Part shown: one piece after another, positions 13,853 through 54,181 of the stretch
How the letters are laid out: each line of letters opens with the position of its first letter
Position numbering within the stretch: the stretch's first letter is position 1
Program-made: the position numbers and the translations under genes
DNA from: Candidatus Margulisiibacteriota bacterium
GTDB taxonomy: Bacteria; Margulisbacteria; WOR-1; O2-12-FULL-45-9; XYB2-FULL-48-7
Length of the DNA: 64,000 nucleotides
Direction of reading: 5' to 3'
NCBI GenBank assembly: GCA_041650855.1
Contig: JBAZKJ010000002.1
Coordinates: 69,076 to 133,075, forward strand
The notes under the pieces: model-generated
The model's database searches: none
The model's input: only the letters and a program-made list of their open reading frames with translations
What the model was told of the DNA's origin: nothing

Positions 13853-15135
13853 AAGTTTTAGTCGTCGGGTCGGGGGGGCGCGAGCACGCCCTGGTCTGGA
13901 AGATCGCGCAAAGCCCGAAAGTGGACAAGCTCTTTTGCGCGCCGGGGAACGCCGGGACAGCCGGCCTGGCGGAAAATGTTCCGCTCAAGGCGGAAGATCT
14001 CCCGGGTTTATTAAAGTTCGCCCGCGAGAACAAGGTTGACCTGACGGTCATCGGTCCGGAAGTACCGCTGTGCGCCGGGATCGTTAATTTATTCGAACAG
14101 AACGGCCTGCGGGCTTTCGGCCCGCGGCAAGAGGCGGCCCGGATCGAAGGGAGCAAGGTTTTTTCCAAGGAATTCATGATCAAATACGAGATCCCGACCG
14201 CGCAGGCGGGGATCTTTAGCGACCCCGGCAAGGCCAAAGCGTATATCGAAGAGGTCGGCGCCCCGATCGTCGTCAAGGCCGACGGTCTGGCGGCCGGCAA
14301 GGGAGTGGTAGTCTGCCAGACGAAGCAAGAGGCGCTGGAGGCCGTTGACCTGATCATGGGGGCCAGGGAATTCGGCAGCGCCGGCGACAAGGTCATTATC
14401 GAAGAATGCCTGGCCGGCGAAGAAGCGTCGATCATCGCTTTTACCGACGGCAAGTCCGTTATCCCGCTCGCTTCGTCGCAGGATCACAAACGGGTCTTCG
14501 ACGGCGACCAGGGGCCGAACACCGGCGGCATGGGGGCTTACTCGCCGGCGCCGATCGTGACCGACCGCTTAATGGAACAGATCAACCTGGACGTCCTCAA
14601 GCCGTTCGTCGCCGGGATGCGGCAGGAAGGGATCAAATACCAGGGGGTCATTTACGCCGGGATCATGGTGACGAAAAAAGGTCCGCTGGTGCTGGAGTTC
14701 AACGCCCGGTTCGGCGACCCGGAGACCCAGCCGATCATGATGCGGATGAAAAGCGACATTATCCCGATCCTGGAAGCGATCATCGACGAAAAGCTCGACG
14801 ACCGCTTGATCGAATGGGACGAGCGGGCGGCGGTTTGCGTCGTTCTGGCGGCAGGCGGGTACCCGGGCAAGTACGAAAAAGGGATCCCGCTCAAGGGGTT
14901 GGACCGGATCGATCAGCTGGACAACGTGATGGTGTTCCACGCCGGGACGTCGACAGTCGCGGGTCACGAGTCGCGGGTTGTTACTGCCGGAGGCCGCGTG
15001 TTGGGTGTCACGGCGCTCGGCGGCTCGATCAAGTTCGCGATCGATAAAGCTTATCAGGCCGTCAATTTAATAAAGTTCAAGGGGATGCATTACCGCAAGG
15101 ATATCGGCAAGAAAGCGCTGAAGTATGAGCGTTAA
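13849..15135 (+). CDS. purD: Phosphoribosylamine--glycine ligase
   Basis: GSGGREHAL, IEGSKVFSK, KADGLAAGKGV, DHKRVFDGDQGPNTGGMG, EFNARFGDPE. Confidence 0.97.
   Translation: MKVLVVGSGGREHALVWKIAQSPKVDKLFCAPGNAGTAGLAENVPLKAEDLPGLLKFARENKVDLTVIGPEVPLCAGIVNLFEQNGLRAFGPRQEAARIEGSKVFSKEFMIKYEIPTAQAGIFSDPGKAKAYIEEVGAPIVVKADGLAAGKGVVVCQTKQEALEAVDLIMGAREFGSAGDKVIIEECLAGEEASIIAFTDGKSVIPLASSQDHKRVFDGDQGPNTGGMGAYSPAPIVTDRLMEQINLDVLKPFVAGMRQEGIKYQGVIYAGIMVTKKGPLVLEFNARFGDPETQPIMMRMKSDIIPILEAIIDEKLDDRLIEWDERAAVCVVLAAGGYPGKYEKGIPLKGLDRIDQLDNVMVFHAGTSTVAGHESRVVTAGGRVLGVTALGGSIKFAIDKAYQAVNLIKFKGMHYRKDIGKKALKYER
14955..14980. repeat. Period-7 tandem patch in purD
   Basis: AGTCGCG GGTCACG AGTCGCG GGTTG; encodes VAGHESRV. 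Confidence 0.7.
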
Positions 15136-15688
15136 ACTGCTCGTGGCGACGACGAACAAGCATAAGCTCCGCGAGATCAAGCGCGTCCTCAAGGGATACA
15201 GCGTCACGGGTCGCGGGTCGCGGGTCAGGGAGAACGGTCAGACTTTTGAAGCCAACGCGATCAAGAAGGTCAAGGCGCTAAAGTTAAAGGACAATGAGAT
15301 CGGGCTCGCGGATGATTCGGGATTAATGGTCAACAGCTTAAAGGGAAAACCAGGCGTAAAGTCGGCCCGTTTTGCTTCTCCTCCCACACCGGAAAACCTT
15401 TGCCGCAAGCTCTTGCGGGTAATGCGGAATGCGGCAGTCGGAATGCGGGGGGCGAAGTTCGTTTGCGTCATTGCTGTTGCCTGGCCGTCGGGCAAGGTTA
15501 GGACGGTCAAGGGCGTGGTCAACGGGCGGATCGTCCGCGAAATGCGGGGGACGCAAGGCTTTGGCTACGACCCGGTCTTCCGGCCGTGCGGTTACCAAAA
15601 AACTTTTGCGCAGATGTCCGCAGCGGGCAAGAACAGGATCAGCCACCGGGGCCGGGCGCTGCAAAAGCTGAAGGCGATCATTAAGTAA
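15125..15688 (+). CDS. rdgB: Non-canonical purine NTP pyrophosphatase (RdgB/HAM1)
   Basis: ATTNKHKLREI, TFEANA..K, ADDSGL, PGVKSARF, GFGYDPVF, KNRISHRGRAL. Confidence 0.95.
   Translation: MSVKLLVATTNKHKLREIKRVLKGYSVTGRGSRVRENGQTFEANAIKKVKALKLKDNEIGLADDSGLMVNSLKGKPGVKSARFASPPTPENLCRKLLRVMRNAAVGMRGAKFVCVIAVAWPSGKVRTVKGVVNGRIVREMRGTQGFGYDPVFRPCGYQKTFAQMSAAGKNRISHRGRALQKLKAIIK
15202..15229. repeat. Period-7 tandem patch in rdgB (family GGTCGCG)
   Basis: CGTCACG GGTCGCG GGTCGCG GGTCAGG; encodes VTGRGSRV. Confidence 0.8.
15421..15448. repeat. Period-7 tandem patch in rdgB (family AATGCGG)
   Basis: AATGCGG AATGCGG CAGTCGG AATGCGG; encodes MRNAAVGMR. Confidence 0.8.
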
Positions 15689-15692
15689 GATT

Positions 15693-15767
15693 TGCGCCCG
15701 GCAGGAGTCGAACCTGCTACCTATTGCTTCGAAGGCAATCGCTCTAATCCAGATGAGCTACGGGCGC
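15693..15767 (-). tRNA. tRNA-Arg (anticodon TCG)
   Basis: Reverse complement GCGCCCG..ATTGC-CT-TCG-AA-GCAAT..GGTTCGACTCC..CGGGCGC-A forms a cloverleaf; CCA not encoded. Confidence 0.93.
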
Positions 15768-15805
15768 GTTTGATATTATTATACTCTATGTGTTAGAATA
15801 AAATC

Positions 15806-17267: not shown

Positions 17268-18410
17268 TTGTTGACGTTAGCCAAACTGAAGAAGCTGGCC
17301 GGGAAAGAGGGGACGCCGCTCTTGATCATCGACCACGACGTGATCAGGGCGAATTACGAGCGCCTGCGCAAGCACCTGCCGCGCGTCGGCCTTTATTTCG
17401 CGATCAAAGCGAACCCCGAGCCGCAGATCATCCAGACCCTTTATCCGCTCAACAGCGGCTTTGACGTCGCCTCGCTGCAGGAGTACGAAGCGGTCCTGGC
17501 CAACGTACCGGCCAAGGCGCTGCGCGGCCACAAACGGAACGCTTTTATCTGGGACAAGATCATCGTCGCCAACACGATCAAGCCGATCGCCACGCTCCGG
17601 CAGATCACCGGCTATAACACGCTGATGACGTTCGATAACCCGGACGAGTTGACCAAGATCAAGGAGCATTGCCCCGATGCCGGCCTGGTCTGCCGCCTTA
17701 GGGTCCAGAACGTCGGCTCGGTCGTGGAACTGTCGAGCAAGTTCGGCGTGGAGCCGGGGGACGCGGCGAACCTGATCGAAAAAGCGTTCAACCTGGGCCT
17801 GACCGTCGAGGGCTTAAGCTTCCACGTCGGCAGCCAGTGCTGCAACATCGATAATTATCTCAACGCCCTGGAAGCGTCCGCCCAGATCTTTAAGGAGGTC
17901 GGCAAGCGCGGCTTTAAGATGCGCCTCTTGAACATCGGCGGCGGTTTTCCCGTTCCCTACGACGGCAACGTGCCCGACTTTGCGGGGCTGGCCAAGAAAC
18001 TGCGCCGGGAGATCGACCGGCTCTTCCCGAAAAAGATCGAGGTGGTGGCCGAGCCGGGGCGTTTCCTGGTCGCCACCGCGGCGACGCTGGTCGTGGAAGT
18101 GGTCGGCAAGTCGTTCCGCGACGATAAATGGGTCTACTACGTCAACGACGGCGTTTACGGCACGCTGTCCGGCGTGATCTTTGACCATATCCAGTACCAC
18201 TTTACCGCCTTCAAGCGGGGAGAGCAGAAGTTGAGCGCGGTCGTCGGCCCGACCTGCGACGCGCTGGACACCGTTTCGACCGCCGAGATGCTGCCGGAAC
18301 TGAACATCGGCGACCTGCTTTACGTCAAGAACTGCGGCGCCTACACCAACGGGTCGGCTACCACGTTCAACGGTTTCCCCAAGGCGAAGATCCTCAATAT
18401 CAATGCCTAA
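17268..18410 (+). CDS. Ornithine/lysine decarboxylase, alanine-racemase fold (type III PLP)
   Basis: FAIKANP (PLP Lys), FDVAS, SKFG, SFHVGSQ, NIGGGF, EPGRF, GPTCDALD, GAYT. Confidence 0.9.
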   Translation: MLTLAKLKKLAGKEGTPLLIIDHDVIRANYERLRKHLPRVGLYFAIKANPEPQIIQTLYPLNSGFDVASLQEYEAVLANVPAKALRGHKRNAFIWDKIIVANTIKPIATLRQITGYNTLMTFDNPDELTKIKEHCPDAGLVCRLRVQNVGSVVELSSKFGVEPGDAANLIEKAFNLGLTVEGLSFHVGSQCCNIDNYLNALEASAQIFKEVGKRGFKMRLLNIGGGFPVPYDGNVPDFAGLAKKLRREIDRLFPKKIEVVAEPGRFLVATAATLVVEVVGKSFRDDKWVYYVNDGVYGTLSGVIFDHIQYHFTAFKRGEQKLSAVVGPTCDALDTVSTAEMLPELNIGDLLYVKNCGAYTNGSATTFNGFPKAKILNINA

Positions 18411-20109
18411 ATTCCTGCCGGTCAGTAAGGAGGAATTCGGCGGCCAGCTCGACGTCATCATCGTTACCGGCGACGCTTATATCGACCATCCTTCGTTCGG
18501 CCCGGTCCTGATCGCCCGCTACCTGGAGGCGCACGGCTTCAGCGTCGGGCTCATTGCCCAGCCGGACTGGACCAAGGACGCAGACTTCTTAAAGCTGGGA
18601 AAACCCCGTTTGTTCTTCGGTGTTTCGGCCGGCAACCTCGATTCAATGGTGGCGAACTACACTGCCGACAAGAAAGTCCGCCGGACCGACATGTACACGC
18701 CCGGCAATGTCGGCGGTAAACGGCCCGACCGAGCGACTATTGTCTACACCAATAAGCTCAAAGCGCTTTTCCCTGGCGTCCCTGTCGTCTTGGGCGGAGT
18801 GGAGGCGAGCTTAAGGCGCTTTGCTCATTATGATTACTGGGATGATAAGGTGCGCAGGCCGCTCTTGTTCGACGCGAAAGCGGACTACTTGGTCTATGGA
18901 ATGGGCGAAAAAGGGATATTAGGCATTGCCAAGGGGGAGAAGGCCGGCAACACCGCCATTATCGAAAAGGATATATCAGGATATCCGGATGCTTTAGTTT
19001 TGCCCAGCTATGAAGAAGCGGCGGCGGATAAGAAGAAGTATGCCGAGGCGTTCAAGTTATTATACACGGAAGGGCGGAAGAAGAAGCCGCGGACGATCAT
19101 CCAGCCGTGCCAGGGGCGGTATGTCGTCGTCTTCCCGCCGGAAAACCTGAGCGCCAAAGAGCTGGACGATCTGTTTTCCCTGCCTTTTGCCCGCGCTCCG
19201 CATCCTGCTTACAAAGAACCGATCCCTGCCTGGGATTTTGTCCGTTTCTCGACGGTTTCCCACCGCGGCTGCTTTGGCGGCTGCTCGTTCTGCGCCATCT
19301 CCCAGCACCAGGGGAAATACATTACCAGCCGGAGCCTCGGCTCGATCAAAAAGGAGATCGGCGCTACGATGCTCAAAGACCCCGGCTTCAAGGGGAACAT
19401 CCTTGACGTCGGCGGGCCGACGGCGAACATGTACGGGATGGAGTGTGCCAGGGCAGGGGGGTGCACCCGGGCTAGCTGTAATTATCCGACGGTCTGCAAG
19501 GATCTGAAAGTTTCGCTCAAACCGGCCATTGGTCTGCTCAAAGAGATCAGGAACATCCCCGGCGTGAAAAAGCTGTTCATCGGTTCCGGGATCAGGTACG
19601 ACCTGGCGCTGCTCGACGACGAATATATGGAAGAGCTGGTCAAACACCACGTCAGCGGGCAGTTAAGCGTCGCCCCGGAGCACATTTGCGAAGAAGTGCT
19701 GCTGATGATGGGGAAGCCGAAGGCGGAAAAATTCCTGGAATTTAAAGAGCGCTTCGAGCAGTTAAGCCAAAAGCACGGCAAGAAACAGTTCATCGTCCCG
19801 TATTTTATCTCTTCCCACCCGGGATCGACGCTCAAGCATGCTCTGGAGTTGGCTTTATTTTTGAAGAAAAACAGGATCAGGGTCGAACAGGTGCAGAACT
19901 TTACCCCGACGCCGCTGACCGTCTCGACCTGCCTGTATTACACCGGCCTCGATCCGTTCACCGGCAAGACAGTCCATATTCCCAAGGGGGAAGAGCGCAG
20001 TTTTCAGAAAGCGCTCCTCCAGCCGCAGCTGGCCAAGAACTATCGTTTAGTGGCAAAAGCGTTGAAAATGCTTAAGCGGGAAGATTTGCTTAAGACCCTG
20101 ACCAAGTGA
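18403..20109 (+). CDS. ygiQ: YgiQ/UPF0313 family radical SAM protein
   Basis: VTGDAYIDHPSFG, GNLDSMV, GGVEASLRRFAHYDYW, HRGCFGGCSFC, GGPTANMY, QVQNFTPTP. Confidence 0.92.
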   Translation: MPKFLPVSKEEFGGQLDVIIVTGDAYIDHPSFGPVLIARYLEAHGFSVGLIAQPDWTKDADFLKLGKPRLFFGVSAGNLDSMVANYTADKKVRRTDMYTPGNVGGKRPDRATIVYTNKLKALFPGVPVVLGGVEASLRRFAHYDYWDDKVRRPLLFDAKADYLVYGMGEKGILGIAKGEKAGNTAIIEKDISGYPDALVLPSYEEAAADKKKYAEAFKLLYTEGRKKKPRTIIQPCQGRYVVVFPPENLSAKELDDLFSLPFARAPHPAYKEPIPAWDFVRFSTVSHRGCFGGCSFCAISQHQGKYITSRSLGSIKKEIGATMLKDPGFKGNILDVGGPTANMYGMECARAGGCTRASCNYPTVCKDLKVSLKPAIGLLKEIRNIPGVKKLFIGSGIRYDLALLDDEYMEELVKHHVSGQLSVAPEHICEEVLLMMGKPKAEKFLEFKERFEQLSQKHGKKQFIVPYFISSHPGSTLKHALELALFLKKNRIRVEQVQNFTPTPLTVSTCLYYTGLDPFTGKTVHIPKGEERSFQKALLQPQLAKNYRLVAKALKMLKREDLLKTLTK

Positions 20110-20838: not shown

Positions 20839-22533
20839 ATGAGAATGTCTCAGGTGGTGGCGCCGACGCTCCGGGAGGATCCGGCAGAGGCGGAGGTAGT
20901 TTCCCACAAATTAATGCTGCGCGGAGGATACATCCGCAAAGTAGCCGCTGGAGTCTACACATTTTTACCCCTCGGTTTCCGCGTCCTGAACAAGGTCGCC
21001 AACATTATCCGCGAAGAGCTGAACCGGGCCGGGGCCCAGGAAGTGCTGATGCCGACCCTCTTGCCGGCCGAGCTCTGGCAGGAGACCGGGCGCTGGAACA
21101 TCTACGGCAAGGAACTTTTCCGCATCAAGGACCGCCATGACCGTGAGTTTTGCCTGGGTCCGACCCACGAAGAGTGCATTACCGACCTGGTCAGAAACAT
21201 CGTTAAATCGTACAAGCAATTGCCGGTCAACCTATACCAGATCCAGACCAAATTCCGGGATGAAATTCGCCCCCGCTTCGGGTTAATGAGAGGCCGCGAA
21301 TTCGTCATGAAAGACGCCTATTCGTTCCACACCAGCCAGGAATCGCTCGACCAAGAGTACCGGAACATGTACGACGCCTACTGCCGGATCTTCGACCGGC
21401 TCGGCCTTAAATACCGGGTCGTGGAGGCCGATTCCGGCCTGATCGGCGGCGGGTACTCCCAAGAGTTCATGGTCCTGGCCGAGACCGGCGAAGAGGAGAT
21501 CTTCCATTGCTCGCATTGCGACTATTCCGCGAGCCGCGACTCGGCCGGCGTCGGGGAGTATAAAGCCCCAGGTACCAGGGGCCAAGTACCCGGGACCCAA
21601 GAGGTCGCGACGCCTAACGCCAGGACCGTGGAAGAAGTCAGCGCCTTTCTCAAGATCAAGCCGGCCCAGCTGATCAAGACGCTGATCTACGAGACGGAAA
21701 AAGGGCCGCTGGCGGCGCTGGTCCGCGGCGACCACGCCATTAATGAGGCCAAACTGAAGAAAGTCGCCGGGGTGGACGAGCTCCGCCTGGCGAACGCCGA
21801 AACGATCAAGAAAGTGACCGGCGCGCCGGTCGGTTTTGCCGGCCCGGTCGGTTTAAAAGGGGTCAGGATCGTGGCCGATAACGCGGTCGAATTGATCGCG
21901 GACGGCGCTTCCGGCGCTAACAAGGCCGACTACCACGTTGTGAACATTGTCTACGGCCGGGATTACAAGGCGGAAACGACCGGCGACCTCCGTTACGCGG
22001 TGCACGCCGATAAATGCCCGCGCTGCGCGGAGGGGAAGTTCGAGGTTTCCCGCGGGATCGAAGTCGGCCACATCTTCAAGCTGGGGACTAAATATTCCGA
22101 CAAGATGCGCTGCGTTTATCTGGACGAGAACAACCAGGAAAAAGTGATGATCATGGGGTGCTACGGGATCGGCGTCAGCCGGACGGTGGCCGCCGCGATC
22201 GAGCAGAACCACGACAAGGACGGGATCATCTGGCCAATGCCGCTGGCCCCCTTCGAGGTCGCCGTGGTGCCGGCCAATACGGCGGAAAAAGAGCAGGTCG
22301 CGGTCGCGGAAAAGCTTTATCGCGACCTGGCGGCCGCCGGGTTCGCCGTCCTGCTCGACGACCGGGAAGACCGGCTCGGGGTCAAATTAAAAGATATTGA
22401 CCTGATCGGCATCCCGTACAAAGTGATCATCGGCAAGGCGCTCAAGGAAGGTAAAGTGGAGATCAAGTCGCGGCGGACCGGCGAGACGGTCCTGACCGAA
22501 CCGGCCGGCGTGGCGGCTAAGATAGGGAGATAA
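20839..22533 (+). CDS. proS: Prolyl-tRNA synthetase (bacterial type with INS editing domain)
   Basis: SHKLMLRGG, LGPTHEE, RDEIRPRFGLMRGREF.MKDAY, GIEVGHIFKLG, MGCYGIGVSR. Confidence 0.97.
   Translation: MRMSQVVAPTLREDPAEAEVVSHKLMLRGGYIRKVAAGVYTFLPLGFRVLNKVANIIREELNRAGAQEVLMPTLLPAELWQETGRWNIYGKELFRIKDRHDREFCLGPTHEECITDLVRNIVKSYKQLPVNLYQIQTKFRDEIRPRFGLMRGREFVMKDAYSFHTSQESLDQEYRNMYDAYCRIFDRLGLKYRVVEADSGLIGGGYSQEFMVLAETGEEEIFHCSHCDYSASRDSAGVGEYKAPGTRGQVPGTQEVATPNARTVEEVSAFLKIKPAQLIKTLIYETEKGPLAALVRGDHAINEAKLKKVAGVDELRLANAETIKKVTGAPVGFAGPVGLKGVRIVADNAVELIADGASGANKADYHVVNIVYGRDYKAETTGDLRYAVHADKCPRCAEGKFEVSRGIEVGHIFKLGTKYSDKMRCVYLDENNQEKVMIMGCYGIGVSRTVAAAIEQNHDKDGIIWPMPLAPFEVAVVPANTAEKEQVAVAEKLYRDLAAAGFAVLLDDREDRLGVKLKDIDLIGIPYKVIIGKALKEGKVEIKSRRTGETVLTEPAGVAAKIGR
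21567..21601. repeat. Period-7 tandem patch in proS
   Basis: CCCAGGT ACCAGGG GCCAAGT ACCCGGG ACCCAAG; encodes PGTRGQVPGTQ in the linker before the INS domain. Confidence 0.7.
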
Positions 22534-30358: not shown

Positions 30359-30409
30359 TCCCTTTCCGGATTTTACCACCAAGACACGAAGAACACAAAG
30401 AACACTAAG
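30330..30409. repeat. Inverted pair of CACNAAG-unit arrays around the tsaC start
   Basis: Left arm has CTTAGTG x3 (30330-30355); right arm has CACNAAG x4 (30375-30409); 19-nt spacer. Confidence 0.85.
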
Positions 30410-44673: not shown

Positions 44674-45996
44674 GTGGCGTTTGATTTTATGCCAAATTTC
44701 CGCGGCGGTGTCCACCCGCCCGAACAAAAGGACGCAACAGAGAAACAACCGCTGAAAACAGCCGCTTTGCCGGCCAGGGTCGTGCTTCCGCTGCAGCAGA
44801 ATCTCGGTTGTCCCAATGACCCGCTCGTCAAGGTCGGCGACGAGGTCAAGGAAGGCCAGAAGATCGCCGACGCCCAGAAGTTCATTGCCGCCCCGCTCCA
44901 CGCGCCGATCTCCGGCAAAGTCACCAAGATCGAAAAACTGGACAATGCCTGCGGTTTTGATACTGCTTCGATCGTGATCGAGGGGAGTGGGGCTGCTACC
45001 GCATACGCCGGCCAGTGGTCGGTCGAAGAGCTGACCCCGGAACAGATCCGCCAGTCGGTCCGCGAAGCGGGTATCGTCGGCCTCGGCGGAGCCGCCTTCC
45101 CGACCCACGTAAAACTGACCCCGCCCGCCGGCAAGCAGATCGATGCCGTCATCATTAACGGCTGCGAGTGCGAACCGTACCTGACGGCCGACCATCGCAT
45201 CATGCTGGAAAGGGGCGCGGACCTGCTCTACGGGGCGCGGGCGATCGCCAAAGCGGTTGGGGCGGGCCGGATCATTATGGCGATCGAGGAGAACAAAGCT
45301 GACGCAATCGCTAAGGTGCAACTCGCGACACGCGACACGCAACTCGAGACAATAAAGCTTCGGACCAAGTATCCGCAGGGCGGGGAAAAGATGCTGATCA
45401 AGACGCTGCTCGGGCGGGAAGTCCCGTCCGGCGGGCTGCCGTCCGACGTCGGCGTCGTCGTCCAGAACGTCGGGACCGCGGTGGCGATCGCCGAGGCGGT
45501 CAAGTACGGCAAGCCGCTGATCGAGCGGGTGGTCACGGTGACCGGCTCCGCGGTCAAACAGCCGCAAAACCTGGTGGTGCGGATCGGGACGACATTTAAA
45601 GAAGTGATCGACCAGTGCGGCGGGCTGACGGAGGACGCGGCCAAGGTGATCATGGGGGGGCCGATGACCGGGATCGCGGTCGCGTCGCTCGACGTGCCGG
45701 TCGTTAAGGCGACCTCCGGTATCCTGGCCCTGAACAAACGGGACGCGCAACACTATGAAGAGGGGGATTGCATCCGCTGCGGCCGCTGTCTCAAGGTCTG
45801 TCCGACCGGCTTAATGCCGAATTTCCTCGGCGAGTATGCCCGGTTAAAAAATTGGGACAAGATGGCGGAGTACCACGTCGCCGATTGCATCGAATGCGGC
45901 TGCTGCAGCTACGTCTGCCCGAGCCGGATCTATCTGGTCCAGTATTTCAAGGTCGCCAAGCGCGAGCTGCAGACCAGAAAGGCTGTTTGTAAATGA
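44674..45996 (+). CDS. rnfC: Rnf complex subunit C
   Basis: FRGGVHP, GIVGLGGAAFPTHVK, NGCECEPYLTADH, KYPQGGEK, two CxxCxxC ferredoxin motifs; start may be ATG 44689. Confidence 0.95.
   Translation: MAFDFMPNFRGGVHPPEQKDATEKQPLKTAALPARVVLPLQQNLGCPNDPLVKVGDEVKEGQKIADAQKFIAAPLHAPISGKVTKIEKLDNACGFDTASIVIEGSGAATAYAGQWSVEELTPEQIRQSVREAGIVGLGGAAFPTHVKLTPPAGKQIDAVIINGCECEPYLTADHRIMLERGADLLYGARAIAKAVGAGRIIMAIEENKADAIAKVQLATRDTQLETIKLRTKYPQGGEKMLIKTLLGREVPSGGLPSDVGVVVQNVGTAVAIAEAVKYGKPLIERVVTVTGSAVKQPQNLVVRIGTTFKEVIDQCGGLTEDAAKVIMGGPMTGIAVASLDVPVVKATSGILALNKRDAQHYEEGDCIRCGRCLKVCPTGLMPNFLGEYARLKNWDKMAEYHVADCIECGCCSYVCPSRIYLVQYFKVAKRELQTRKAVCK
45319..45346. repeat. Period-7 tandem patch in rnfC
   Basis: CAACTCG CGACACG CGACACG CAACTCG; encodes QLATRDTQL. 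Confidence 0.78.
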
Positions 45997-46907
45997 GCTT
46001 TGACATTTCCACCGGCCCGCACATCCGCGTTCCGTCCGACGCCAGGCTGGTCATGTGGCTGGTGGCGTTCGCGCTCCTTTTTCCGGCGGCGGCCGGGGTC
46101 TATTACTTCGGTTCCGGCGCGCTGATCTTGATCGTTTTCACGACCCTCGTGGCGGTCGCGACCGAAGCGGCGTGCCAGTGGTTCGCCCGGCGGCCGATCA
46201 CCGCGCTTGACGGGAGCGCGGCCGTGACCGGCCTGCTGTTGGCCCTGATCCTGCCGCCGACCCTGCCGCTCTGGATGGCCGGGATCGGCGCCGCTTTCTC
46301 GATCGCGATCGTCAAGGTCCTCTTCGGCGGGCTGGGCTTTAACATTTTTAATCCGGCGCTGGCCGCGCGCGCCTTTTTGCTCGCTTCCTGGCCGGTGGCG
46401 ATGACGACCTGGGTCCGGCCGTTCGACGCCGTCACGACGGCGACCCCGCTTTACCTGGTCAATAAACTGCACGAAGCGGCGCCGAGCTACTGGGCGCTTT
46501 TTGTCGGCAACCGGGCCGGTTCGCTGGGCGAGACTTCGGTCCTGGCCATTCTGATCGGCGCGGCGCTCCTCCTGCTGGTCCGGGTCATCGACTGGCCGGC
46601 GCCGACCGCTTTTATCGGCACGGTGGCGCTCCTTTCCTGGCTGCTCGGCCACGATCCGCTTTTCGCCATCTTGAGCGGCGGGTTGGTCCTCGGCGCGTTT
46701 TTCATGGCGACCGATTATGTCACCGCGCCGGTCACCGTCAAAGGGCGTTTTATCTTCGGCCTTGGTTGTGGCTTACTGACGGTCTTGATCCGCTATTTCG
46801 GCGGTTTCCCCGAAGGGGTCAACTATTCCATTTTAATAATGAACATGCTGACCCCGGTGATCGACAAGTACGCGCGGCCGCGTTTATTCGGGAGCAAACA
46901 TGCTTAA
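45993..46907 (+). CDS. rnfD: Rnf complex subunit D
   Basis: GPHIR, DGSAAVTGLLLAL, FGGLGFNIFNPAL, DAVTTATPL (FMN Thr), GSLGETS, FMATD. Confidence 0.95.
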   Translation: MSFDISTGPHIRVPSDARLVMWLVAFALLFPAAAGVYYFGSGALILIVFTTLVAVATEAACQWFARRPITALDGSAAVTGLLLALILPPTLPLWMAGIGAAFSIAIVKVLFGGLGFNIFNPALAARAFLLASWPVAMTTWVRPFDAVTTATPLYLVNKLHEAAPSYWALFVGNRAGSLGETSVLAILIGAALLLLVRVIDWPAPTAFIGTVALLSWLLGHDPLFAILSGGLVLGAFFMATDYVTAPVTVKGRFIFGLGCGLLTVLIRYFGGFPEGVNYSILIMNMLTPVIDKYARPRLFGSKHA

Positions 46908-47346
46908 CAGCTGCAAAATGGGACTGATCCTGGCGGTTTTCTGCGTTATCTCCGCCTGGGGTTTGGCTTATGTTTACATGTTCACGCAGACGCAGATCGC
47001 GGCGAACGGCCAGATCGCCTTGGAGAATTCGACCAAAGAGGTCCTGCCGGCGTCCGGCCAGGGGCGGGCGGTCGCCGTTAAGGCGCGCGGTTACGGCGGT
47101 GAGATCGAGCTGCTGGTCGGCATCGACGCCAAAGGGGTGGTGAGCGGGCTCAAGGTCCTGAACCACCGGGAAACGCCGGGGCTCGGTGCCAATATCACGG
47201 GAACCAAATTCCTCGGCCAGTTCAAAGGGAAGAAGGCCGGCGACCGGCTGGAAGCGAAAAAAGATATCGACGCAATCAGCGGGGCGACGATCTCCAGCCG
47301 GGCGGTCTGTTTCGGCGTTAAAGAGGCGTTGAAAAAAACACCATGA
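46900..47346 (+). CDS. rnfG: Rnf complex subunit G (short)
   Basis: GYGGEI, HRETPGLGA, DAISGATISS (FMN Thr). Confidence 0.92.
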   Translation: MLNSCKMGLILAVFCVISAWGLAYVYMFTQTQIAANGQIALENSTKEVLPASGQGRAVAVKARGYGGEIELLVGIDAKGVVSGLKVLNHRETPGLGANITGTKFLGQFKGKKAGDRLEAKKDIDAISGATISSRAVCFGVKEALKKTP

Positions 47347-47933
47347 GCTTATGGCAAGACTTTAACCAGGGAATAATCAAAGAGAACCCCGTTCTCCGGC
47401 TGATGATCGGGCTCTGTCCGACGCTGGCGGTCTCGAACAACGCGACCAACGCGCTCGGGATGAGCGTGGCGGTCGCTTTTGTCCTGATCTGCTCCAACTG
47501 GGTGATCGCGGCGCTCCGCAAATTCACCCCCGACCAGATCCGGATCCCGATCTTCATCATTATTATCTCCACTTTTGTCACGATCAGCGACTACATTATG
47601 CAGGCTTATTATCCGGCGCTGTACGCCGCGCTCGGCGTCTTCGTCCCGCTCATCGTCGTCAACTGCATCATCCTGGGCCGGGCGGAAGCGTTCGCTTACA
47701 AGAACCCGGTCCTCAGCTCGGTCCTCGACGGGGTGGGGATGAGCCTCGGGTTCGCTTTCGCGCTGGTCAGCATCGGCGTGGTCCGCGAGCTGCTCGGCGC
47801 CGGTTCGGTCTTCGGCCTGACGGTTTTCAATCCGGCCGTAGCGGCGACGATCATGGTCCTGCCGCCCGGGGCGTTCATCACGATCGGCATCCTGATGGCG
47901 CTGCTCAATAAATACGAGAACAAGGTGCAATAG
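47343..47933 (+). CDS. rnfE: Rnf complex subunit E
   Basis: ENPV....GLCPTLAVS, IRIP, PLIVVNCIILGRAE, LPPGAF. Confidence 0.95.
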   Translation: MSLWQDFNQGIIKENPVLRLMIGLCPTLAVSNNATNALGMSVAVAFVLICSNWVIAALRKFTPDQIRIPIFIIIISTFVTISDYIMQAYYPALYAALGVFVPLIVVNCIILGRAEAFAYKNPVLSSVLDGVGMSLGFAFALVSIGVVRELLGAGSVFGLTVFNPAVAATIMVLPPGAFITIGILMALLNKYENKVQ

Positions 47934-48511
47934 TGGAACTTTTCGGCATATTTTTCGCGGCGTTCCTGATCAATAACATCTTATTGATCCGTTTCATCGC
48001 GCTTTGTTCGTTCTTCGGCGTCTCGACCAAGATCGACACCTCGGTCGGGATGAGCCTGGCCGTCATCTTCGTCATGACGATCTCGTCCGCCGTTTCCTGG
48101 GTCATTTTCCACGCGATCCTGGCCCCGTTCCACCTGGAGTTCCTCCGGACGGCCACCTTTATTTTGACGATCGCGGCGCTCGTCCAGCTGGAAGAGCTCT
48201 ATCTTAAGAAAATGATCCCGACCCTTTACCGGGCGATGGGGATCTACCTGCCGCTGATCACCACCAATTGCGCGATCCTGGCGGTCGCTTTCCTGGCGAT
48301 CGATTACCGCTACGACTTCGTTCAGTCGATGGTCTATTCGCTTGGCGTCTCGTTCGGCTACTCGCTGGCGATCATCCTGTTCGCCTACGTCCGCGAGCGG
48401 ATGGCGCTGGCGCCGATCCCGAAATGGTTCCAGGGTTATCCGATCGCCTTTATCACCGCGGCGCTGATGTCGCTCGCTTTCCTCGGTTTTACGGGGTTGT
48501 TCGGGCTATGA
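47933..48511 (+). CDS. rnfA: Rnf complex subunit A
   Basis: NNILL..F..LCSF, LRT..FIL, GIYLPLITTNCAIL, RERM. Confidence 0.94.
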   Translation: MELFGIFFAAFLINNILLIRFIALCSFFGVSTKIDTSVGMSLAVIFVMTISSAVSWVIFHAILAPFHLEFLRTATFILTIAALVQLEELYLKKMIPTLYRAMGIYLPLITTNCAILAVAFLAIDYRYDFVQSMVYSLGVSFGYSLAIILFAYVRERMALAPIPKWFQGYPIAFITAALMSLAFLGFTGLFGL

Positions 48512-49290
48512 TCATAACTTCGATCGTTGTTCTGGGGATAATGGGGTTCGTCTTTGCGGCGCTCCTGGCGCTGGCGGCCGATTATTTCGCGATCGAGGTC
48601 GATCCGCGGGTCAGCTCGATCATCGCGATCCTGCCCGGCGCGAACTGCGGCGCCTGCGGCGCCGGCGGCTGCCACGATTTTGCCGAGCGGGTCGTTAAGG
48701 GAGAGATCGCGGTCAGCGGCTGCGTCGTCGGCGGGGCGGAAGTCGCCAAGAAGATCGCCGAGATCATGGGGACGTCCGGTTTTACCGTCCACAAGAAGGT
48801 TGCCGCGGTCCATTGCGGGGCGAACGAGGGCCAGCGGCGGCGGAACGCGCACTACTATGGGGTCAAAACCTGTCAGAACGCCGACATTGTCGGTACGGCC
48901 GGCATGATGTGCGCTTACGGCTGTCTCGGCTACGGCGACTGTTTCTGCGCCTGCGCTTTTGACGCCATTAAGATGGTCGACGGTCTCCCTCAGATCGACC
49001 CGGAAAAATGCACCGCCTGCGGCAAATGCGTCGCCGCCTGTCCGCGCGGCATCATCAGCTTGCGCCCTTACAACTTGCCCGTCCGCGTCGCCTGTTCGTC
49101 GCACGACGGCCCGGCCGCGACCAGGAAAAATTGCCCGGTCGGCTGTATCGCCTGCAAAATATGCGAAAAAGCGGTTCCCGAAGTTTTTAAGGTAGTCGCC
49201 AACCTGGCGGTGCTCGATTACGCCCAGACCGGCGTCAACTGCGATCCGGCCGTGGAAAAATGCCCCACCAAGTGTATACTTAAGTCGTAG
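48508..49290 (+). CDS. rnfB: Rnf complex subunit B
   Basis: Start MIITSIVVLG at ATG 48508; DPRV, LPGANCGACG..GC, polyferredoxin Cys motifs. Confidence 0.94.
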   Translation: MIITSIVVLGIMGFVFAALLALAADYFAIEVDPRVSSIIAILPGANCGACGAGGCHDFAERVVKGEIAVSGCVVGGAEVAKKIAEIMGTSGFTVHKKVAAVHCGANEGQRRRNAHYYGVKTCQNADIVGTAGMMCAYGCLGYGDCFCACAFDAIKMVDGLPQIDPEKCTACGKCVAACPRGIISLRPYNLPVRVACSSHDGPAATRKNCPVGCIACKICEKAVPEVFKVVANLAVLDYAQTGVNCDPAVEKCPTKCILKS

Positions 49291-49309
49291 CAAGTACGGG
49301 AGGTTGAAG

Positions 49310-51175
49310 ATGAAAAAAACAATTTTGGCGCTGGTCTGTTTAATTTCTTTCGTGTTCCTGCTCGGCTGCGGCGAGGGGATACCCGATCTGGTCGTTACTA
49401 CTACCACCACGGTCGCGCCGGGGACGACGACCACGACCGGGACCGGGTCGACAACAACGACGACCACGACAACGACCAGCACCACCACGACGACGATCGG
49501 GGCTTACATTGTCGGCGGTTTTACCGCGGCCGGCGAATTTAACCGGCCGTCCGGCATCTTTATCGATAACAGCGGTAATTTTTACGTGTCGGAAATGATG
49601 GGGTGCCGGGTGCAGAAATTCGACAGCAGCTGGGCGCACCAATTGACGATCGGCGGATACGGGAACAGCAACGGCCAGTTCATCATGCCGCGCGGGGTGG
49701 CGGTCAAGAGCGGCAATATTTATGTCGCCGATACCAATAACGACCGGATCCAGATGTTCAACAGCAGCGGTGTTTTTCAGTGGACCTACGGGAGCGCGGG
49801 GACCGGGATCGGCGCGTTCGACGGTCCGCAGCGGCTCTCTTTTTCCGGCGCCGGCGACCTTTACGTGACCGACTACGGCAACAACCGGGCCCAGTACTTC
49901 GACCTGACCGGCGGGACGCCGAGTTACTTTGGGGAGTTCGACGGTACAGCCGGCGGCGGGACCGCTTTCAGCAAACCGCGCGGATTATTCCACACGACCA
50001 GCGACCAGTTTTGGGTCACTTCGACCGATAATGTGAAGATCCAGCAGTACAATCCGGCCGGCAGCTTTTTATTCGGCTTCGATTCGGCCGGTTCGCCTTC
50101 TGGAGTGGCGATCGATTCATCGTTAAATGTTTTCGTGGCCGATGACGATAATAACCACATTTATAAATACAACTCTGCCGGCACGCTCCAAACGACGATC
50201 GGTTCGACCGGTAAGGGGGCTGGCCAGTTCAACGGGGCGGAGGATGTGGCGGTCGACGGTTCCGATAACATTTATGTCGTCGACGCCAATAATCACCGGG
50301 TCCAGAAATTTGATAACAGCGGCAACCTGCTGGCTATTTACGGTTCGCAGGCGACCGCCGAAGGGAAATTCAACATGCCGGCTTGCGTGGCGATCGACGC
50401 GGGCAAGAACAGCTACGTGACCGACATGTACAATGCCCGGGTGCAAAAATTCACCCCGGCCGGGGTCTTCCTCTGGCAGTTCGGTGAGCTCGGCATCGGG
50501 GACGGCCAATTTGCCAACGCGGTTGGGATCGCCGTTGACGCGGCCGGGAATATCTTGGTGGTTAACAGCGGTAATGACCGGGTCCAAAAGTTCGACAGCT
50601 CCGGCGCCTTAGTCAGCAAGTTCGGCTCGACCGGCAGCGCCCACGGCCAGTTTGACCAGCCTGCCGGCATCGCCCTGGACGCGAGCGGCAATATTTATGT
50701 GGCCGATACGGACAACGACCGGATCGAGATGTTCAACAGCCTTGGCGTTCACCAGGCGACGTACGGCAGTTCCGGGGCGGGCGACGGGCAGCTCGATGGG
50801 GCGCGCGGGGTAGCGGTCGACGCGGCGGGCAACATCTTCGTCGCGGATACCAATAACCACCGGGTCCAGCGGTTCAACGCCGCCGGGACGATGACCTTGA
50901 AATTCGGCAGTTACGGGCCGGGCAACAGCCAGTTCAAATCGCCGTTCGCGGTCGCGGTCGACGGTGCGGGCAACATCTACGTGGCCGATTACGAGAACCA
51001 CCGGATCCAGAAATTCGACAGCGCCGGCAACTACCTGGCGAGTTACGGTTCGCCGGGGAGCGGCAGCGGCCAGTTCGGTTATCCGAGCGACGTCAAGTCC
51101 GACAGCGCCGGCAATCTCTGGGTGATCGACAGCGCCAATAACCGGATGCAGTATATCCCGGCCGGGACATTCTAA
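49310..51175 (+). CDS. NHL-repeat lipoprotein with Thr-rich linker
   Basis: Lipobox LLGC; TTTT linker; about 12 repeats of F..P.GIAVD..GNIYVAD..N.RIQKF; GGGAGG SD fits ATG 49310. Confidence 0.88.
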   Translation: MKKTILALVCLISFVFLLGCGEGIPDLVVTTTTTVAPGTTTTTGTGSTTTTTTTTTSTTTTTIGAYIVGGFTAAGEFNRPSGIFIDNSGNFYVSEMMGCRVQKFDSSWAHQLTIGGYGNSNGQFIMPRGVAVKSGNIYVADTNNDRIQMFNSSGVFQWTYGSAGTGIGAFDGPQRLSFSGAGDLYVTDYGNNRAQYFDLTGGTPSYFGEFDGTAGGGTAFSKPRGLFHTTSDQFWVTSTDNVKIQQYNPAGSFLFGFDSAGSPSGVAIDSSLNVFVADDDNNHIYKYNSAGTLQTTIGSTGKGAGQFNGAEDVAVDGSDNIYVVDANNHRVQKFDNSGNLLAIYGSQATAEGKFNMPACVAIDAGKNSYVTDMYNARVQKFTPAGVFLWQFGELGIGDGQFANAVGIAVDAAGNILVVNSGNDRVQKFDSSGALVSKFGSTGSAHGQFDQPAGIALDASGNIYVADTDNDRIEMFNSLGVHQATYGSSGAGDGQLDGARGVAVDAAGNIFVADTNNHRVQRFNAAGTMTLKFGSYGPGNSQFKSPFAVAVDGAGNIYVADYENHRIQKFDSAGNYLASYGSPGSGSGQFGYPSDVKSDSAGNLWVIDSANNRMQYIPAGTF

Positions 51176-51190
51176 CCGAGGAGGGTAAAA

Positions 51191-52564: not shown

Positions 52565-53402
52565 AGTCGTTCAATTCGGCCAGGATCCGCAGGGGGGCCC
52601 CGGTATCGACGAAGTTGGCCGTGCCGACCTGGACCGCTTTGGCGCCGGCCAGCAGGAACTCGGCCGCGTCGCTGCCGGTCATGATCCCGCCGATCCCGAT
52701 GACCGGGACTTTAACGGCCCGGGTCAGTTCATAGACCATCCGGACGGCAATTGGCCTGATCGCTGGCCCAGAAAGGCCCCCGGTTTTTGTCCCGAGTCGC
52801 GAGTCGCGGGTCTCCGTGTCGATGACCATGCCGACGATCGTGTTGATGGCGGAGAGAGCGTCCGCTCCGGCGTCGACCGCCGCCTGGCCGATGACGGTGA
52901 TGTCGGTCACGTTCGGCGTCAGCTTGGCGATGACCGGCTGGGTCGTCGCTTTACGGACAGCCGAGATGACTTGGGCGGTTAATCCGGCATCTACGCCGAA
53001 CGCCATACCGCCGCTTTTCACGTTAGGGCAGGAGATATTGACCTCGAGCCCCTTGACCATGGTCTCTTTGCTTAACCGCTTGGCCAGTTCGGCGTATTCT
53101 TCCACCGTCTCGCCGGCGATGTTGACGATCGTCGGGGTATCGAACTTGGCGAGGAAGGGGAGGTCTTCTTGCAGAAAATGTTCCAACCCCTCGTTCTGCA
53201 GGCCGATCGAATTGAGCATGCCCGACGGCGTTTCCGCGATCCGGGGGGCGGGGTTCCCGGCGCGCGGCTTGAGCGTGATGCTCTTGGTGATTATCGCGCC
53301 GAGCTTATTAAGGTCCAGATACTCGGAGTATTCCTTGCCCCAGCCGAACGTTCCCGAGGCGACCATGATCGGATTTTTTAACTTGATCCCGGCTAACTCC
53401 AT
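52527..53402 (-). CDS. pyrD: Dihydroorotate dehydrogenase B catalytic subunit
   Basis: ASGTFG, GNPAPR, NSIGLQN, NISCPNV, KLTPN, INT, GGLSGPAIRP, GIGGI. Confidence 0.96.
   Translation of the reverse strand: MELAGIKLKNPIMVASGTFGWGKEYSEYLDLNKLGAIITKSITLKPRAGNPAPRIAETPSGMLNSIGLQNEGLEHFLQEDLPFLAKFDTPTIVNIAGETVEEYAELAKRLSKETMVKGLEVNISCPNVKSGGMAFGVDAGLTAQVISAVRKATTQPVIAKLTPNVTDITVIGQAAVDAGADALSAINTIVGMVIDTETRDSRLGTKTGGLSGPAIRPIAVRMVYELTRAVKVPVIGIGGIMTGSDAAEFLLAGAKAVQVGTANFVDTGAPLRILAELNDYVHRHPRALNFS
52791..52812. repeat. Period-7 tandem patch in pyrD (GGTCGCG family)
   Basis: CCGAGTC GCGAGTC GCGGGTC; encodes TRDSRLG. Confidence 0.72.
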
Positions 53403-54181
53403 GTGATCTCCTTAGCGTCAAAGACCGGCCCATCCTTACAGACCATTTTATAACCACCCTTGGTCATAATAGCACAACCTTTACAGGCTCCCACGCCGCA
53501 CGCCATCCGTTCTTCCAGGGACAACTGGCAGTCGATCTTCTTTTGCCAGGCGATCTCGGCAACAGCCTTGAGCATCGCCTTCGGCCCACAAGCGTATATT
53601 TCCGTTAGTCCCCAGTCCCTAGCCCCCAGCGTATTCTCGAGCAGATCAAGGAGCAGATCGCTTACCAGTCCCTTCTTTCCGTGACTGCCGTCATCGGTGC
53701 TGACGATCACCCGGTCGGCAACTTCTTTCAGCTCCGCTTCGCACTGCACACAATCTTTCTCCCTTGCCCCAATCAGGATGAACGGTTTGCTGCTTTTGAG
53801 CTTGTTGGCCAAGGCAAGCAAGGGAGCGACGCCCATGCCTCCGCCGACTAAGAGATGGGCCTTCTTCCCCGGGTCAATCTTAAAGCCGCTGCCTAAAGGG
53901 CCGAGGACGTCCAGTTCTTCGCCGACGAAATATTTGGTCAAAAGTTCGGTCCCCCGGCCGACCACTTCGTAGAAGAGCTCAAAGGTCTCGTGTTCCGGGT
54001 TGATCCGGTGGAGGCTGATCGGCCGGCGGAGGAGGGGGTCGTAACTGTCCGAACACCTGACCTCCACGAACTGCCCGGGTTCGGCGTGGGTCGCGATATA
54101 TTGGGAAAGGAGGGTCAGTTTGTAAAAGCGGGGGCCGATCTTTTGGTGGTCGAGTATCCGGCACTTTTCCTGGATCGGCAT
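53393..54181 (-). CDS. pyrK: Dihydroorotate dehydrogenase B electron-transfer subunit
   Basis: PGQFV, LRRPIS, GPLGSGF, GGGMGVAP, ACGP, LEERMACGVGACKGC, VCKDGPVF. Confidence 0.94.
   Translation of the reverse strand: MPIQEKCRILDHQKIGPRFYKLTLLSQYIATHAEPGQFVEVRCSDSYDPLLRRPISLHRINPEHETFELFYEVVGRGTELLTKYFVGEELDVLGPLGSGFKIDPGKKAHLLVGGGMGVAPLLALANKLKSSKPFILIGAREKDCVQCEAELKEVADRVIVSTDDGSHGKKGLVSDLLLDLLENTLGARDWGLTEIYACGPKAMLKAVAEIAWQKKIDCQLSLEERMACGVGACKGCAIMTKGGYKMVCKDGPVFDAKEITWS
53610..53630. repeat. STRR1-like heptamer triplet in pyrK
   Basis: CCCCAGT CCCTAGC CCCCAGC (21 nt), within the segment encoding TLGARDWGL on the minus strand. Confidence 0.75.

Follow-up and report, generated by a model that had tools for sequence, protein, structure and literature searches.

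The commonest long simple repeats of prokaryotes are tandem heptamers. Our present results describe a set of such repeats in a 64-kb stretch of DNA from a Candidatus Margulisiibacteriota bacterium (hereafter the window; part of ENA assembly ERZ27247363, contig k141_2494133, 273 kb), where 11 patches of 3-5 degenerate heptanucleotides each lie in frame inside genes. The patches represent a known class of repeats in a new phylum. What appear to be new are their in-frame residence in core enzymes, the conservation of their sites across a whole clade while the repeated unit turns over, and an approximate neutrality with respect to protein length.

The analysis covers the window and loci of relatives of up to ~20 kb each, with loci of other phyla for comparison (labels such as L001), together with 120 RdgB protein orthologs, which carry labels such as P0005. 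The best relatives of the RdgB protein of the window (60-75% identity) belong only to metagenome-assembled genomes named Candidatus Margulisiibacteriota, Saganbacteria or candidate division WOR-1, and closer relatives at 80-81% identity were retrieved by protein search. The Margulisbacteria, Saganbacteria and WOR-1 lineages are siblings of Cyanobacteria (PMC6349859). The genome is compact, with about 95% of the window coding.

Arrays were called with Tandem Repeats Finder (TRF, score at least 30) and with a scan for maximal segments of lag-7 identity under a mild mismatch penalty. A preliminary description of this DNA, made by reading the sequence, had listed at least 11 heptamer patches, and all 11 of these are present. 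Seven are called by TRF as period-7 arrays of 2.4-4.1 copies (at 15203, 15421, 28642, 33798, 45324, 52789 and 53607), and all 11 are found among the 20 segments that score at least 8 in the lag-7 scan. Where at least 16 matches out of 21 are demanded, lag 7 yields four patches, compared with 0.06 in 50 dinucleotide-preserving shuffles, and lags 4, 5, 8, 10, 11 and 13 yield none in the window; the objection that period-7 runs might be no commoner than in shuffled sequence therefore falls. At a segment score of at least 11 there are 7 segments for lag 7 and none for each of the codon-phase-equivalent lags 4, 10 and 13. At a score of at least 8 the numbers are 20 for lag 7 and 3, 4 and 5 for the same three lags, so a few of the weakest lag-7 segments could be due to chance. 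About 6-7 patches are individually far beyond chance, and the other 4-5 are weak when taken alone, the weakest being those in purD (14955), proS (21567) and purH (27750), with scores of 8-9. The purD and proS patches and the second rdgB patch are backed by relatives, in which clear heptamer arrays occupy the same site. A pervasive weak lag-7 bias was considered and rejected: no residual lag-7 excess is left after masking of the high-scoring segments, and the signal is thus confined to discrete patches.

Seven unit families coexist in the window, as had been proposed, with GGTCGCG-type units at five loci and on both strands. Full-length NCBIfam matches confirm nine of the gene names (purD, rdgB, proS, purH, prmC, bioD, rnfC, pyrD and pyrK) and therefore intact reading frames; the name "OMP", given in the preliminary description to the tenth gene, remains unverified, as the protein has no Pfam or NCBIfam match. 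All 11 patches do lie inside open reading frames (ORFs) with the frame kept, but this location is uninformative by itself because the window is ~95% coding (probability of all 11 falling in ORFs ~0.59).

The same periodicity dominates in the relatives. In 313 kb from 21 Margulisbacteria and Saganbacteria loci, TRF called 48 period-7 arrays, i.e. 15.3 per 100 kb, while no other period exceeds 4.2 per 100 kb, and a second, independent set of loci around prmC gave the same peak at period 7. Other phyla (924 kb from 59 loci) have 4.65 period-7 arrays per 100 kb, which cluster in a small number of loci from Lentisphaerae, Nitrospirota, Verrucomicrobiota and Desulfotomaculia-like Bacillota. The window and clade loci together have 54 arrays, 47 of them inside ORFs of at least 150 amino acids (aa), while in other phyla arrays are more often found outside ORFs or at ORF ends. 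No other tandem period in the clade comes near period 7, whose arrays almost always fall inside ORFs.

The units are shared between dispersed loci at the level of DNA. Sense copies of the GGTCGCG family, found in purD, rdgB and prmC, encode peptides such as RVAGRESRV; antisense copies encode QLATRDTQLE in rnfC and ETRDSRLG in pyrD. One unit family in both orientations thus encodes unrelated peptides, and what is shared is the DNA and not the peptide, which supports the preliminary description on this point; peptide-level selection as the cause of unit sharing was rejected for this reason. Exact words of 11-15 nt recur between patches, among them a 15-mer common to prmC and pyrD (GACCCGCGACTCGCG) and a word common to purD, prmC and pyrD (CGAGTCGCGGGT), and five pairs of patches share at least 11 nt where ~0.07 would be expected. 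In the window and 32 clade loci, 16.5% of unit pairs from the same genome and more than 1.5 kb apart differ by at most one mismatch (14.3% with the window excluded), as opposed to 5.1% of pairs from different, GC-matched genomes (Fisher odds ratio 3.7, p = 4e-4; the pairs are non-independent and P is indicative only). Similarly, orthologous sites of different genomes are alike in 9.8% of cases and different sites within a genome in 17.3% (permutation p = 0.0006, again for non-independent pairs). In their units, loci of one genome resemble one another more than they resemble loci of other genomes. The unit AGGGTCA is used by genomes of GC content 0.38 to 0.59, so GC content alone does not set the unit; as sole cause of the within-genome similarity it was also rejected because the excess persists when genome pairs are matched for GC. 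In purD, related units stand in opposite orientation in the window and in a close relative.

At orthologous positions the array state is retained and the unit is not. Units at the first rdgB site include AGGGTCA, AGTTACC, GGGTTAC, AGGGACT and others, and the second rdgB site of L019 carries AATACGG. The purD site has AGGGTCA in L001, AACCAGT in L006, AGAAAGC in L009, AGTAGAC in L012, GACGAGA in L021 and CAACTCG in L153; the proS site has GCCAGGG in L003, GGGACAA in L004 and 4.3 copies of AGAACAC in L155; the prmC site has AGTCACG in L083, ATTCCAC in L087, ATTCGTC in L092 and ATTTCGA in L095. Pooled lag-7 identity amounts to 0.52 at the first and 0.43 at the second rdgB site (24 orthologs each; control mean 0.24 for the first), 0.42 in purD (19 orthologs; control windows 0.25), 0.56 in proS (5 orthologs) and 0.41 in prmC (12 orthologs). 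Control windows in the same genes have means of 0.24-0.26 and maxima of 0.35-0.44, the value of the patch exceeding the control maximum of its own gene each time, and other non-triplet lags inside the patches give ~0.2-0.3. RdgB genes of other phyla show no signal (0.23 and 0.27 at sites 1 and 2). In most of the 120 RdgB orthologs the first site betrays itself even in the protein by a 7-residue echo of the form xV......xV (for example SRVTGRESRV, LPVTSCQLPV and TRVLGLGTRV). Heptamer periodicity is kept at the same protein position, with different units, at all five tested sites. Relatives differ in amino acids and keep the DNA periodicity, which is the reverse of what would be seen if orthologs merely shared residues, the second objection that had been raised beforehand.

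Sites are also gained and lost. In a YgiQ-type radical-SAM gene (18403-20109; Radical_SAM_N/DUF3362) the site 18895-18990, which follows a YGMGEKGIL motif, is short and array-free in the window, and at least five relatives (L002, L007, L008, L021 and L155) have arrays of up to 7.9 units there, with units such as CAAATGA, AAATACT, GAAATTC and AATGACG; arrays at this site are thus present in some genomes and absent from another. L003 and L157 lack an array at the purD site. In L153 the purD array CAACCCG TAACTCG CAACTCG TAACT merges into the conserved codons TCG TAA CT next to it (TCGTAACT), which suggests local seeding from the flank.

The arrays are young, or else undergo continuous homogenisation. 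Between the window and its closest relatives, 0.28-0.46 of four-fold degenerate sites in rdgB are identical where 0.36 is expected by chance, i.e. synonymous change is saturated, and still arrays are 80-100% self-identical within each genome, for example (AGGGTCA)3.9 in L003, (ATTCGTC)4.6 in L092 and (AATTTCG)4.7 in L095. Within clusters of RdgB proteins of at least 90% identity, differences concentrate in the first site, with 7 residues in one pair. Two pairs, P0005/P0143 and P0027/P0134, differ in this site and in a contiguous N-terminal stretch and are identical thereafter, a pattern that suggests import of this tract by recombination. The patches do not behave as phase-variable contingency loci: the genes that hold them encode housekeeping enzymes, and their frames are intact and full-length in the window and in every ortholog seen.

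Protein length is affected little. Compared with PDB homologs, the first rdgB site is 3-5 aa shorter, the second is 2 aa longer, and the sites in purD and pyrK are 2-3 and about 5 aa longer, respectively; pyrD aligns without gaps to PDB 5ue9 over a segment of conserved length in which T, R and L are kept, and the prmC site has the same length as in array-free outgroups. In ortholog alignments the patches are thus roughly length-neutral replacements of variable, indel-prone segments and not as simple insertions, an alternative that the preliminary description had left to be checked. In some distant lineages the prmC site is expanded by 15-23 aa and accommodates two arrays. The prmC loop of L097 (match ~10001-10888) and L100 contains an inverted GGGGATT-type pair (AATCCCC...GGGGATT), forming a long hairpin in the ORF and encoding the peptide NPPSPPFSKGGMGGF. 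An AlphaFold model of RdgB based on the 120-sequence alignment (pLDDT 89.4; a single-sequence model, with pLDDT 45.7, was unusable) places site 1 in an edge strand and loop and site 2 at a helix end and loop. The location in loops or linkers proposed earlier is therefore roughly right, but patches also take in strand and helix ends, and the pyrD patch includes conserved residues.

Translation of a heptamer array passes through all three frames, and the unit must consequently be free of stop codons in all three sense frames. AGGGTCA and TTGGTCA, whose complements contain TGA, occur in sense orientation only, while the window variant CGGGTCG, free of stops on both strands, is found in both orientations. 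The same filter has been described for TAACTGA, whose stop-containing orientation is excluded from ORFs (MacGregor, PMC4679880).

We consider it somewhat better than an even chance that the patches are heptanucleotide repeats of the short tandemly repeated repetitive (STRR) type, made and re-homogenised by DNA-level copying with a 7-nt register and then pruned by selection. Within an array, slipped or transient misalignment of the nascent strand would let a few bases be copied from the neighbouring unit before realignment; between similar arrays, occasional template switching or ectopic, short-patch conversion could spread a unit. Purifying selection would then keep those arrays that preserve the frame, either by leaving length unchanged or by altering it in multiples of 3 nt, whose units are stop-free in all three sense-strand frames, and which lie in protein segments tolerant of almost any hydrophilic sequence. 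In a genome that is ~95% coding nearly all arrays fall in genes, and selection for tolerant segments would lead many lineages to carry arrays in the same permissive segments, with units that drift or are replaced. From the arrays, their excess, the conservation of sites, the turnover of units, their similarity within genomes and the approximate length neutrality, all of them directly observed, we infer a mechanism of misalignment or template switching, and that the arrays serve no cellular function. For heptamers in general, PMC4679880 and PMC4692102, citing Mrazek 2007, mention polymerase slippage as a proposed origin and a suggested match between 7 nt and the polymerase contact.

Several points weigh against this explanation. 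Simple slippage by 7 nt in either direction would break the frame, and the length-neutral homogenisation by misalignment or conversion is assumed. Local misalignment alone leaves the sharing of units by dispersed loci unexplained, the ectopic step is ad hoc, and the 7-nt register itself is not explained by the copying model. With the patches masked, lag-7 identity in the window (0.2477) lies within the range of 0.2449-0.2482 given by lags 10-22 of the same codon phase. The one further assembly of this organism (Logan contigs with the same proteins) is 100% identical to the window and apparently stems from the same sample; of two strain pairs, L155/L156 are identical and L153/L154 differ by 11 single nucleotide polymorphisms in 3.7 kb, none of them in arrays. 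Finally, some arrays form canonical G-quadruplex (G4) motifs and some conserved residues lie inside patches, which leaves room for function.

Such a function is the basis of the next explanation to be weighed, according to which the arrays are cis-elements under selection, G-quadruplexes or heptads bound by protein or RNA and acting on replication, transcription or translation of the host genes, comparable to the regulatory roles that have been suggested for heptamers of Nostoc, Xanthomonas and Geobacter. We regard it as unlikely. The first rdgB patch and the purH patch have at least four G3 tracts, the commonest family of the clade is (GGGNNNN)n with ~4 units, and four units are likewise preferred in Xanthomonas and Nostoc, where G4 formation was measured (PMC4692102). 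Geobacter (GGGACCG)4 repeats were called putative regulatory elements (PMC2700814), expression of recF and recO in Nostoc is affected by heptamer repeats (10.1101/2022.06.06.494920), and selection could be the reason why the same sites keep their array state although divergence is saturated. However, most of the seven unit families in the window, such as TTCGAGT, TTGGTCA, AATGCGG and CAACTCG, are incapable of forming G4, orthologs have different units at the same site, so that no sequence-specific factor fits, and arrays occur in both orientations, without positional preference in genes (aa 5-378) and with sites gained and lost between lineages. The G-quadruplex as a general explanation was rejected, since most units lack G tracts. 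The preliminary description had favoured a mechanism that makes or deposits heptamer arrays. A dedicated writer of this kind would comprise a template-directed enzyme, related to reverse transcriptase, telomerase or primase, or a tiny mobile element with a transposase, and the dominant unit would be set by a genome-specific template. Dispersed loci with a genome-specific unit, including exact 12-15-mers in the same variant order, speak for it, as do the related purD units in opposite orientation in the window and its close relative, which resemble replacement rather than drift, the tiny conserved hairpin elements in frame inside arrays of relatives, which would mean that mobile micro-DNA targets arrays, and the patchy distribution across phyla. 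Such a writer is nevertheless not supported: neither a Pfam record covering window positions 5124-63402 nor a scan of the remaining window ORFs revealed a reverse transcriptase, Avd-like, transposase or integrase domain or a diversity-generating retroelement, and no pair of reverse transcriptase and Avd-like four-helix-bundle gene lies near the repeats in these 64 kb of the genome. Further, arrays have neither target-site duplications nor fixed ends, many unit families coexist in one genome, the merging of the L153 purD unit with its flanking codons points to local seeding, and AGGGTCA arrays are very rare in viral contigs (2 in 2.9 million, in a scan otherwise rated uninformative). Altogether we judge such a dedicated writer improbable. 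Its specific form, a trans-acting, template-directed activity that overwrites short DNA stretches at dispersed loci in either orientation, with the template setting the dominant unit of the genome, seems a shade more improbable still; if it were true, cyanobacterial and other bacterial heptamers would be the footprint of an undescribed DNA-rewriting machinery, and the core-gene patches of Margulisbacteria would be the places to date and measure its action against orthologs.

Two further explanations invoke no repeat-generating process at work at present. In one, an old array at each site is merely inherited and shuffled by homologous recombination, and the differences between P0005 and P0143 and between P0027 and P0134 do resemble an imported recombination tract. 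Arrays that are not renewed would have decayed, however, whereas they are near perfect in each genome with synonymous identity at chance level, and recombination leaves the sharing of units between different genes of one genome unexplained; we give this explanation little credence. The other is chance, or an artefact of codon usage in GC-rich coding sequence. The weakest patches (purH, proS and purD, with the window considered alone) do have scores at which control lags also give a few hits, but the stronger segments, seen at lag 7 and never at lags 4, 10 and 13, the shuffles, and the single peak at period 7 in the 313 kb of relatives refute it for the set as a whole. Chance could hold for one or two of the weakest patches and is otherwise hardly credible.

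Individually, the patches present themselves as follows. The purD patch (14949-14978, plus strand; GTCGACA GTCGCGG GTCACGA GTCGCGG; score 9) encodes TVAGHESRVV at aa 369-378; this segment lies in a C-terminal-domain hairpin loop and exceeds PDB orthologs in length as given above. The first rdgB patch (15203-15226, plus strand; GTCACGG GTCGCGG GTCGCGG GTC; score 15) encodes SVTGRGSRVRE at aa 26-36, in the short edge strand and loop, and has four G3 tracts. The second (15421-15448, plus strand; AATGCGG AATGCGG CAGTCGG AATGCGG) encodes VMRNAAVGMR at aa 99-108, the length comparison at this site being with S. aureus RdgB. In proS a degenerate patch, weak alone (21568-21598, plus strand; CCAGGTA CCAGGGG CCAAGTA CCCGGGA; score 8), corresponds to APGTRGQVPGTQE at aa 243-255. 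The purH patch (27747-27785, plus strand; RERGAKGEGRVT, aa 234-245) is weak, G-rich and degenerate, with a score of 8 that control lags also reach; the single ortholog seen (L092) has an indel and different residues there, and the patch has the 10-mer CGGGGGGCGA in common with the second rdgB patch. The TTGGTCA-type, STRR2-like patch (28642-28685, plus strand; score 13) forms the N-terminal hydrophobic segment NWSLVIIWCLLLGAWSL of the 402-aa protein that had been named "OMP". The prmC patch (33798-33826, minus strand; sense GCGGGTC GCGGGCC GCGAGTC GCGGGTC; score 14) encodes LRVAGRESRV at aa 105-114, between the N-terminal domain and the I-x-D-x-GTG strand that binds S-adenosylmethionine.

In bioD (39659-39690, minus strand; plus-strand reading GTTTCGA GTTTCAG GTTTCGT TTTTCGA; score 11) the patch encodes KLEKRNLKLE at aa 81-90; the ortholog in L090 equals it in length and is similar in residues but shows no clear periodicity, and bioD has no match among solved structures at E <= 1e-25. 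The rnfC patch (45318-45351, plus strand; CAACTCG CGACACG CGACACG CAACTCG; score 14), which is the GGTCGCG family in antisense, encodes QLATRDTQLET at aa 216-226. The pyrD patch (52789-52812, minus strand; plus-strand reading GTCCCGA GTCGCGA GTCGCGG GTC; score 13) encodes ETRDSRLG at aa 197-204 and has the same family antisense to the gene. The pyrK patch (53607-53630, minus strand; score 11), of the STRR1-like CCCCAGT type, encodes LGARDWG at aa 185-191, the PDB homolog used for its length being 5jca_S. By sequence motif, four or more G3 tracts are confined to the first rdgB patch and the purH patch; prmC and pyrK have three and the rest none. Patches occur anywhere between aa 5 and aa 378, and neither gene starts nor gene ends are preferred. 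An additional lag-7 segment, outside the earlier list, was noted at 30197-30227 (TTTGTTC TTTGGTC TTTTCTT, score 10) in a minus-strand gene of the Sua5/YciO/YrdC family; it adjoins period-8 and period-9 tandem repeats (CCTTAGTGT and ACACAAAGA) at 30329-30409.

Heptamer arrays of relatives contain, in frame, two hairpin elements of ~21-24 nt (L008, L013, L090 and L093). In the first, the loop TCGACT(T/G)CGCTC is conserved, while the stem varies with compensating changes (GTGCC/GGCAC, TCCC/GGGA or CTCC/GGAG). This element lies in frame inside the arrays at L008 7057 (rdgB, LDCARS) and at L090 10347 and L091 5875 (prmC, IPRLRSGQ), and protein P0014 has it at the second rdgB site; the copy in the window, at 55338, is located in a tRNA-Val fragment and not in an array. 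The small dispersed repeats of Nostoc, reportedly described by Elhai in 2008 as mobile hairpins of 21-27 nt embedded in tandem heptamer repeats, seem to be similar to this element. The second element is a perfect 20-nt palindrome, CCTGCCTGCCGGCAGGCAGG, found at L013 1667, L093 207, L004 5072, L014 6131 and 11215, L068 6482, L062 2891 and L102 14122, in loci of Margulisbacteria or Saganbacteria, Verrucomicrobiota and Nitrospirales. It is in frame inside the arrays of L013 (rdgB) and L093 (prmC), where it encodes LPAGRQ, and is present also in proteins P0025, P0046 and P0103. Its conservation across phyla suggests a horizontally spreading micro-element.

The tRNA-Val(GAC) gene of the window (55228-55303) is flanked by two fragments of itself (55133-55392). 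Upstream, its first ~32 nt are copied at 55133-55163 and followed by an AT-rich hairpin; downstream, at ~55322-55392, a copy of the 3' half is interrupted in the anticodon-loop region by a 21-nt hairpin, GTGCCTCGACTTCGCTCGGCAC. ARAGORN and Rfam call the intact copy only. Heptamer arrays were also met in viral contigs of IMG/VR, where a scan of 2.9 million contigs for (AGGGTCA)3, itself rated uninformative, found two, with AGGGTCA-type arrays of up to 8.9 units and other heptamer arrays (L158 9366-9427 and L159 2599-2681; GC content 0.57-0.58).

Among the remaining genes of the window, a cluster directly upstream of recJ (7450-13852) encodes a response regulator, an MshE/T2SSE-type ATPase, a T2SSF platform protein and three small pilin-like ORFs with N_methyl motifs. 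It looks like a type IV pilus or competence-like cluster and could bear on DNA uptake and recombination in the lineage. Two SLH-domain proteins are encoded at 11-1171 and 3005-4429. A 623-aa NHL-repeat beta-propeller protein (49304-51175) has close to its N-terminus a tract rich in Asp, His and Asn, encoded by a repeat of period 33/15/3 in which GAC, CAC and AAC codons abound (49423-49496). The Rnf complex operon (rnfC, D, G, E, A, B) occupies 44674-49290, and a membrane-bound complex I-like or group-4 hydrogenase-like cluster (Oxidored_q6, Complex1_30kDa/49kDa, NADHdh and Proton_antipo_M) occupies 55404-62151; both fit the hydrogen-based metabolism reported for these lineages (PMC6349859).

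Intergenic arrays offer no ortholog frame for comparison and are therefore difficult to study. Arrays in universally conserved enzymes have exact boundaries, an alignable ancestral state and a built-in filter of frame and stop codons, and more than 100 orthologs can be followed per site. They make testable the tempo of renewal, homogenisation at constant length, the sharing of units between loci and the existence of a trans-acting factor. Across a whole clade, defined segments of core enzymes are rewritten continually and this is tolerated. The finding has consequences for annotation, for the alignment-based phylogeny of these phyla and for protein engineering, in which such segments are naturally validated permissive sites.

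The closest known counterparts of the patches are the STRRs of heterocystous cyanobacteria, reportedly described by Mazel and colleagues in 1990 with the consensus units CCCCA(A/G)T (STRR1), TT(G/T)GTCA (STRR2) and CAACAGT (STRR3). The link to them made in the preliminary description is apt, as far as these consensus units go, with CCCCAGT at 53610, TTGGTCA at 28643 and a host phylum sibling to Cyanobacteria. Common to both are tandem units of 7 nt, short arrays, many dispersed loci and few unit families per genome, and relatives of the window carry AGTTACC/CCAGTTA, one base from the TAACTGA family. On the other hand, nine of the 11 patches use units other than the pyrK patch (CCCCAGT type) and the 28642 patch (TTGGTCA type), and the dominant unit, GGTCGCG, is not an STRR unit. 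Here all arrays are in frame in housekeeping genes and short (3-5 units), while STRRs are mostly intergenic, and the host is a non-photosynthetic member of Margulisiibacteriota/Saganbacteria and not a heterocystous cyanobacterium.

An analogy of logic alone leads to the DNA uptake sequences (uptake signal sequences, USS, and DNA uptake sequences, DUS) of Pasteurellaceae and Neisseriaceae, single 9-12-mers driven by biased uptake. They too are genome-specific motifs at dispersed loci, in both orientations and, within genes, preferentially in tolerant protein segments of unchanged length, but they are not tandem heptamers and their drive is known. Our search of the available literature for Margulisbacteria or Saganbacteria in combination with repeats found nothing on in-frame heptamer arrays, and a search for the STRR1 and STRR2 strings gave unrelated papers only. 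In many prokaryotes the most abundant class of long simple sequence repeats consists of heptamers, mostly intergenic and with "no clear clue" to origin or function (SPADE preprint, 10.1101/309039), and PMC4679880 and PMC4692102, again citing Mrazek 2007, likewise present them as the most abundant long class without known function; in the latter, STRRs are cited as "three tandemly repetitive heptanucleotides".

The preliminary description had noted that STRRs are mostly intergenic; the patches in the window are intragenic, but intragenic heptamers are not unprecedented: the 49 copies of (GGGACCG)4 in Geobacter metallireducens, which share with the present arrays four tandem GGGNNNN units, high GC content and specificity to the genome, are intragenic as well as intergenic (PMC2700814). 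They differ in belonging to another phylum and in being described as putative regulatory RNA elements, with neither conservation of sites across species nor turnover of units reported (PMC2700814). Xanthomonas GGGAATC and Nostoc PCC 7120 GGGGA(C/T)T are genome-specific G-tract heptamers at many loci with about four units preferred, located at the same positions in related species with extensive variation of length and sequence (PMC4692102); in contrast to them, our arrays are inside ORFs and most of their units cannot form G4. TAACTGA of marine Beggiatoaceae, cyanobacteria and some Bacteroidetes is a genome-specific heptamer at very many loci, patchy across phyla and without known mechanism, but with a single dominant unit and mostly in 5' untranslated regions (PMC4679880). 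Finally, the tandem repeats of Borgs resemble the patches as fast-evolving nucleotide repeats within ORFs that add or rewrite variable, disordered protein segments (PMC9879509). The in-ORF units of Borgs are longer, are multiples of 3 nt and expand their proteins, whereas units of 7 nt here pass through all three frames and leave the length of the protein barely changed.

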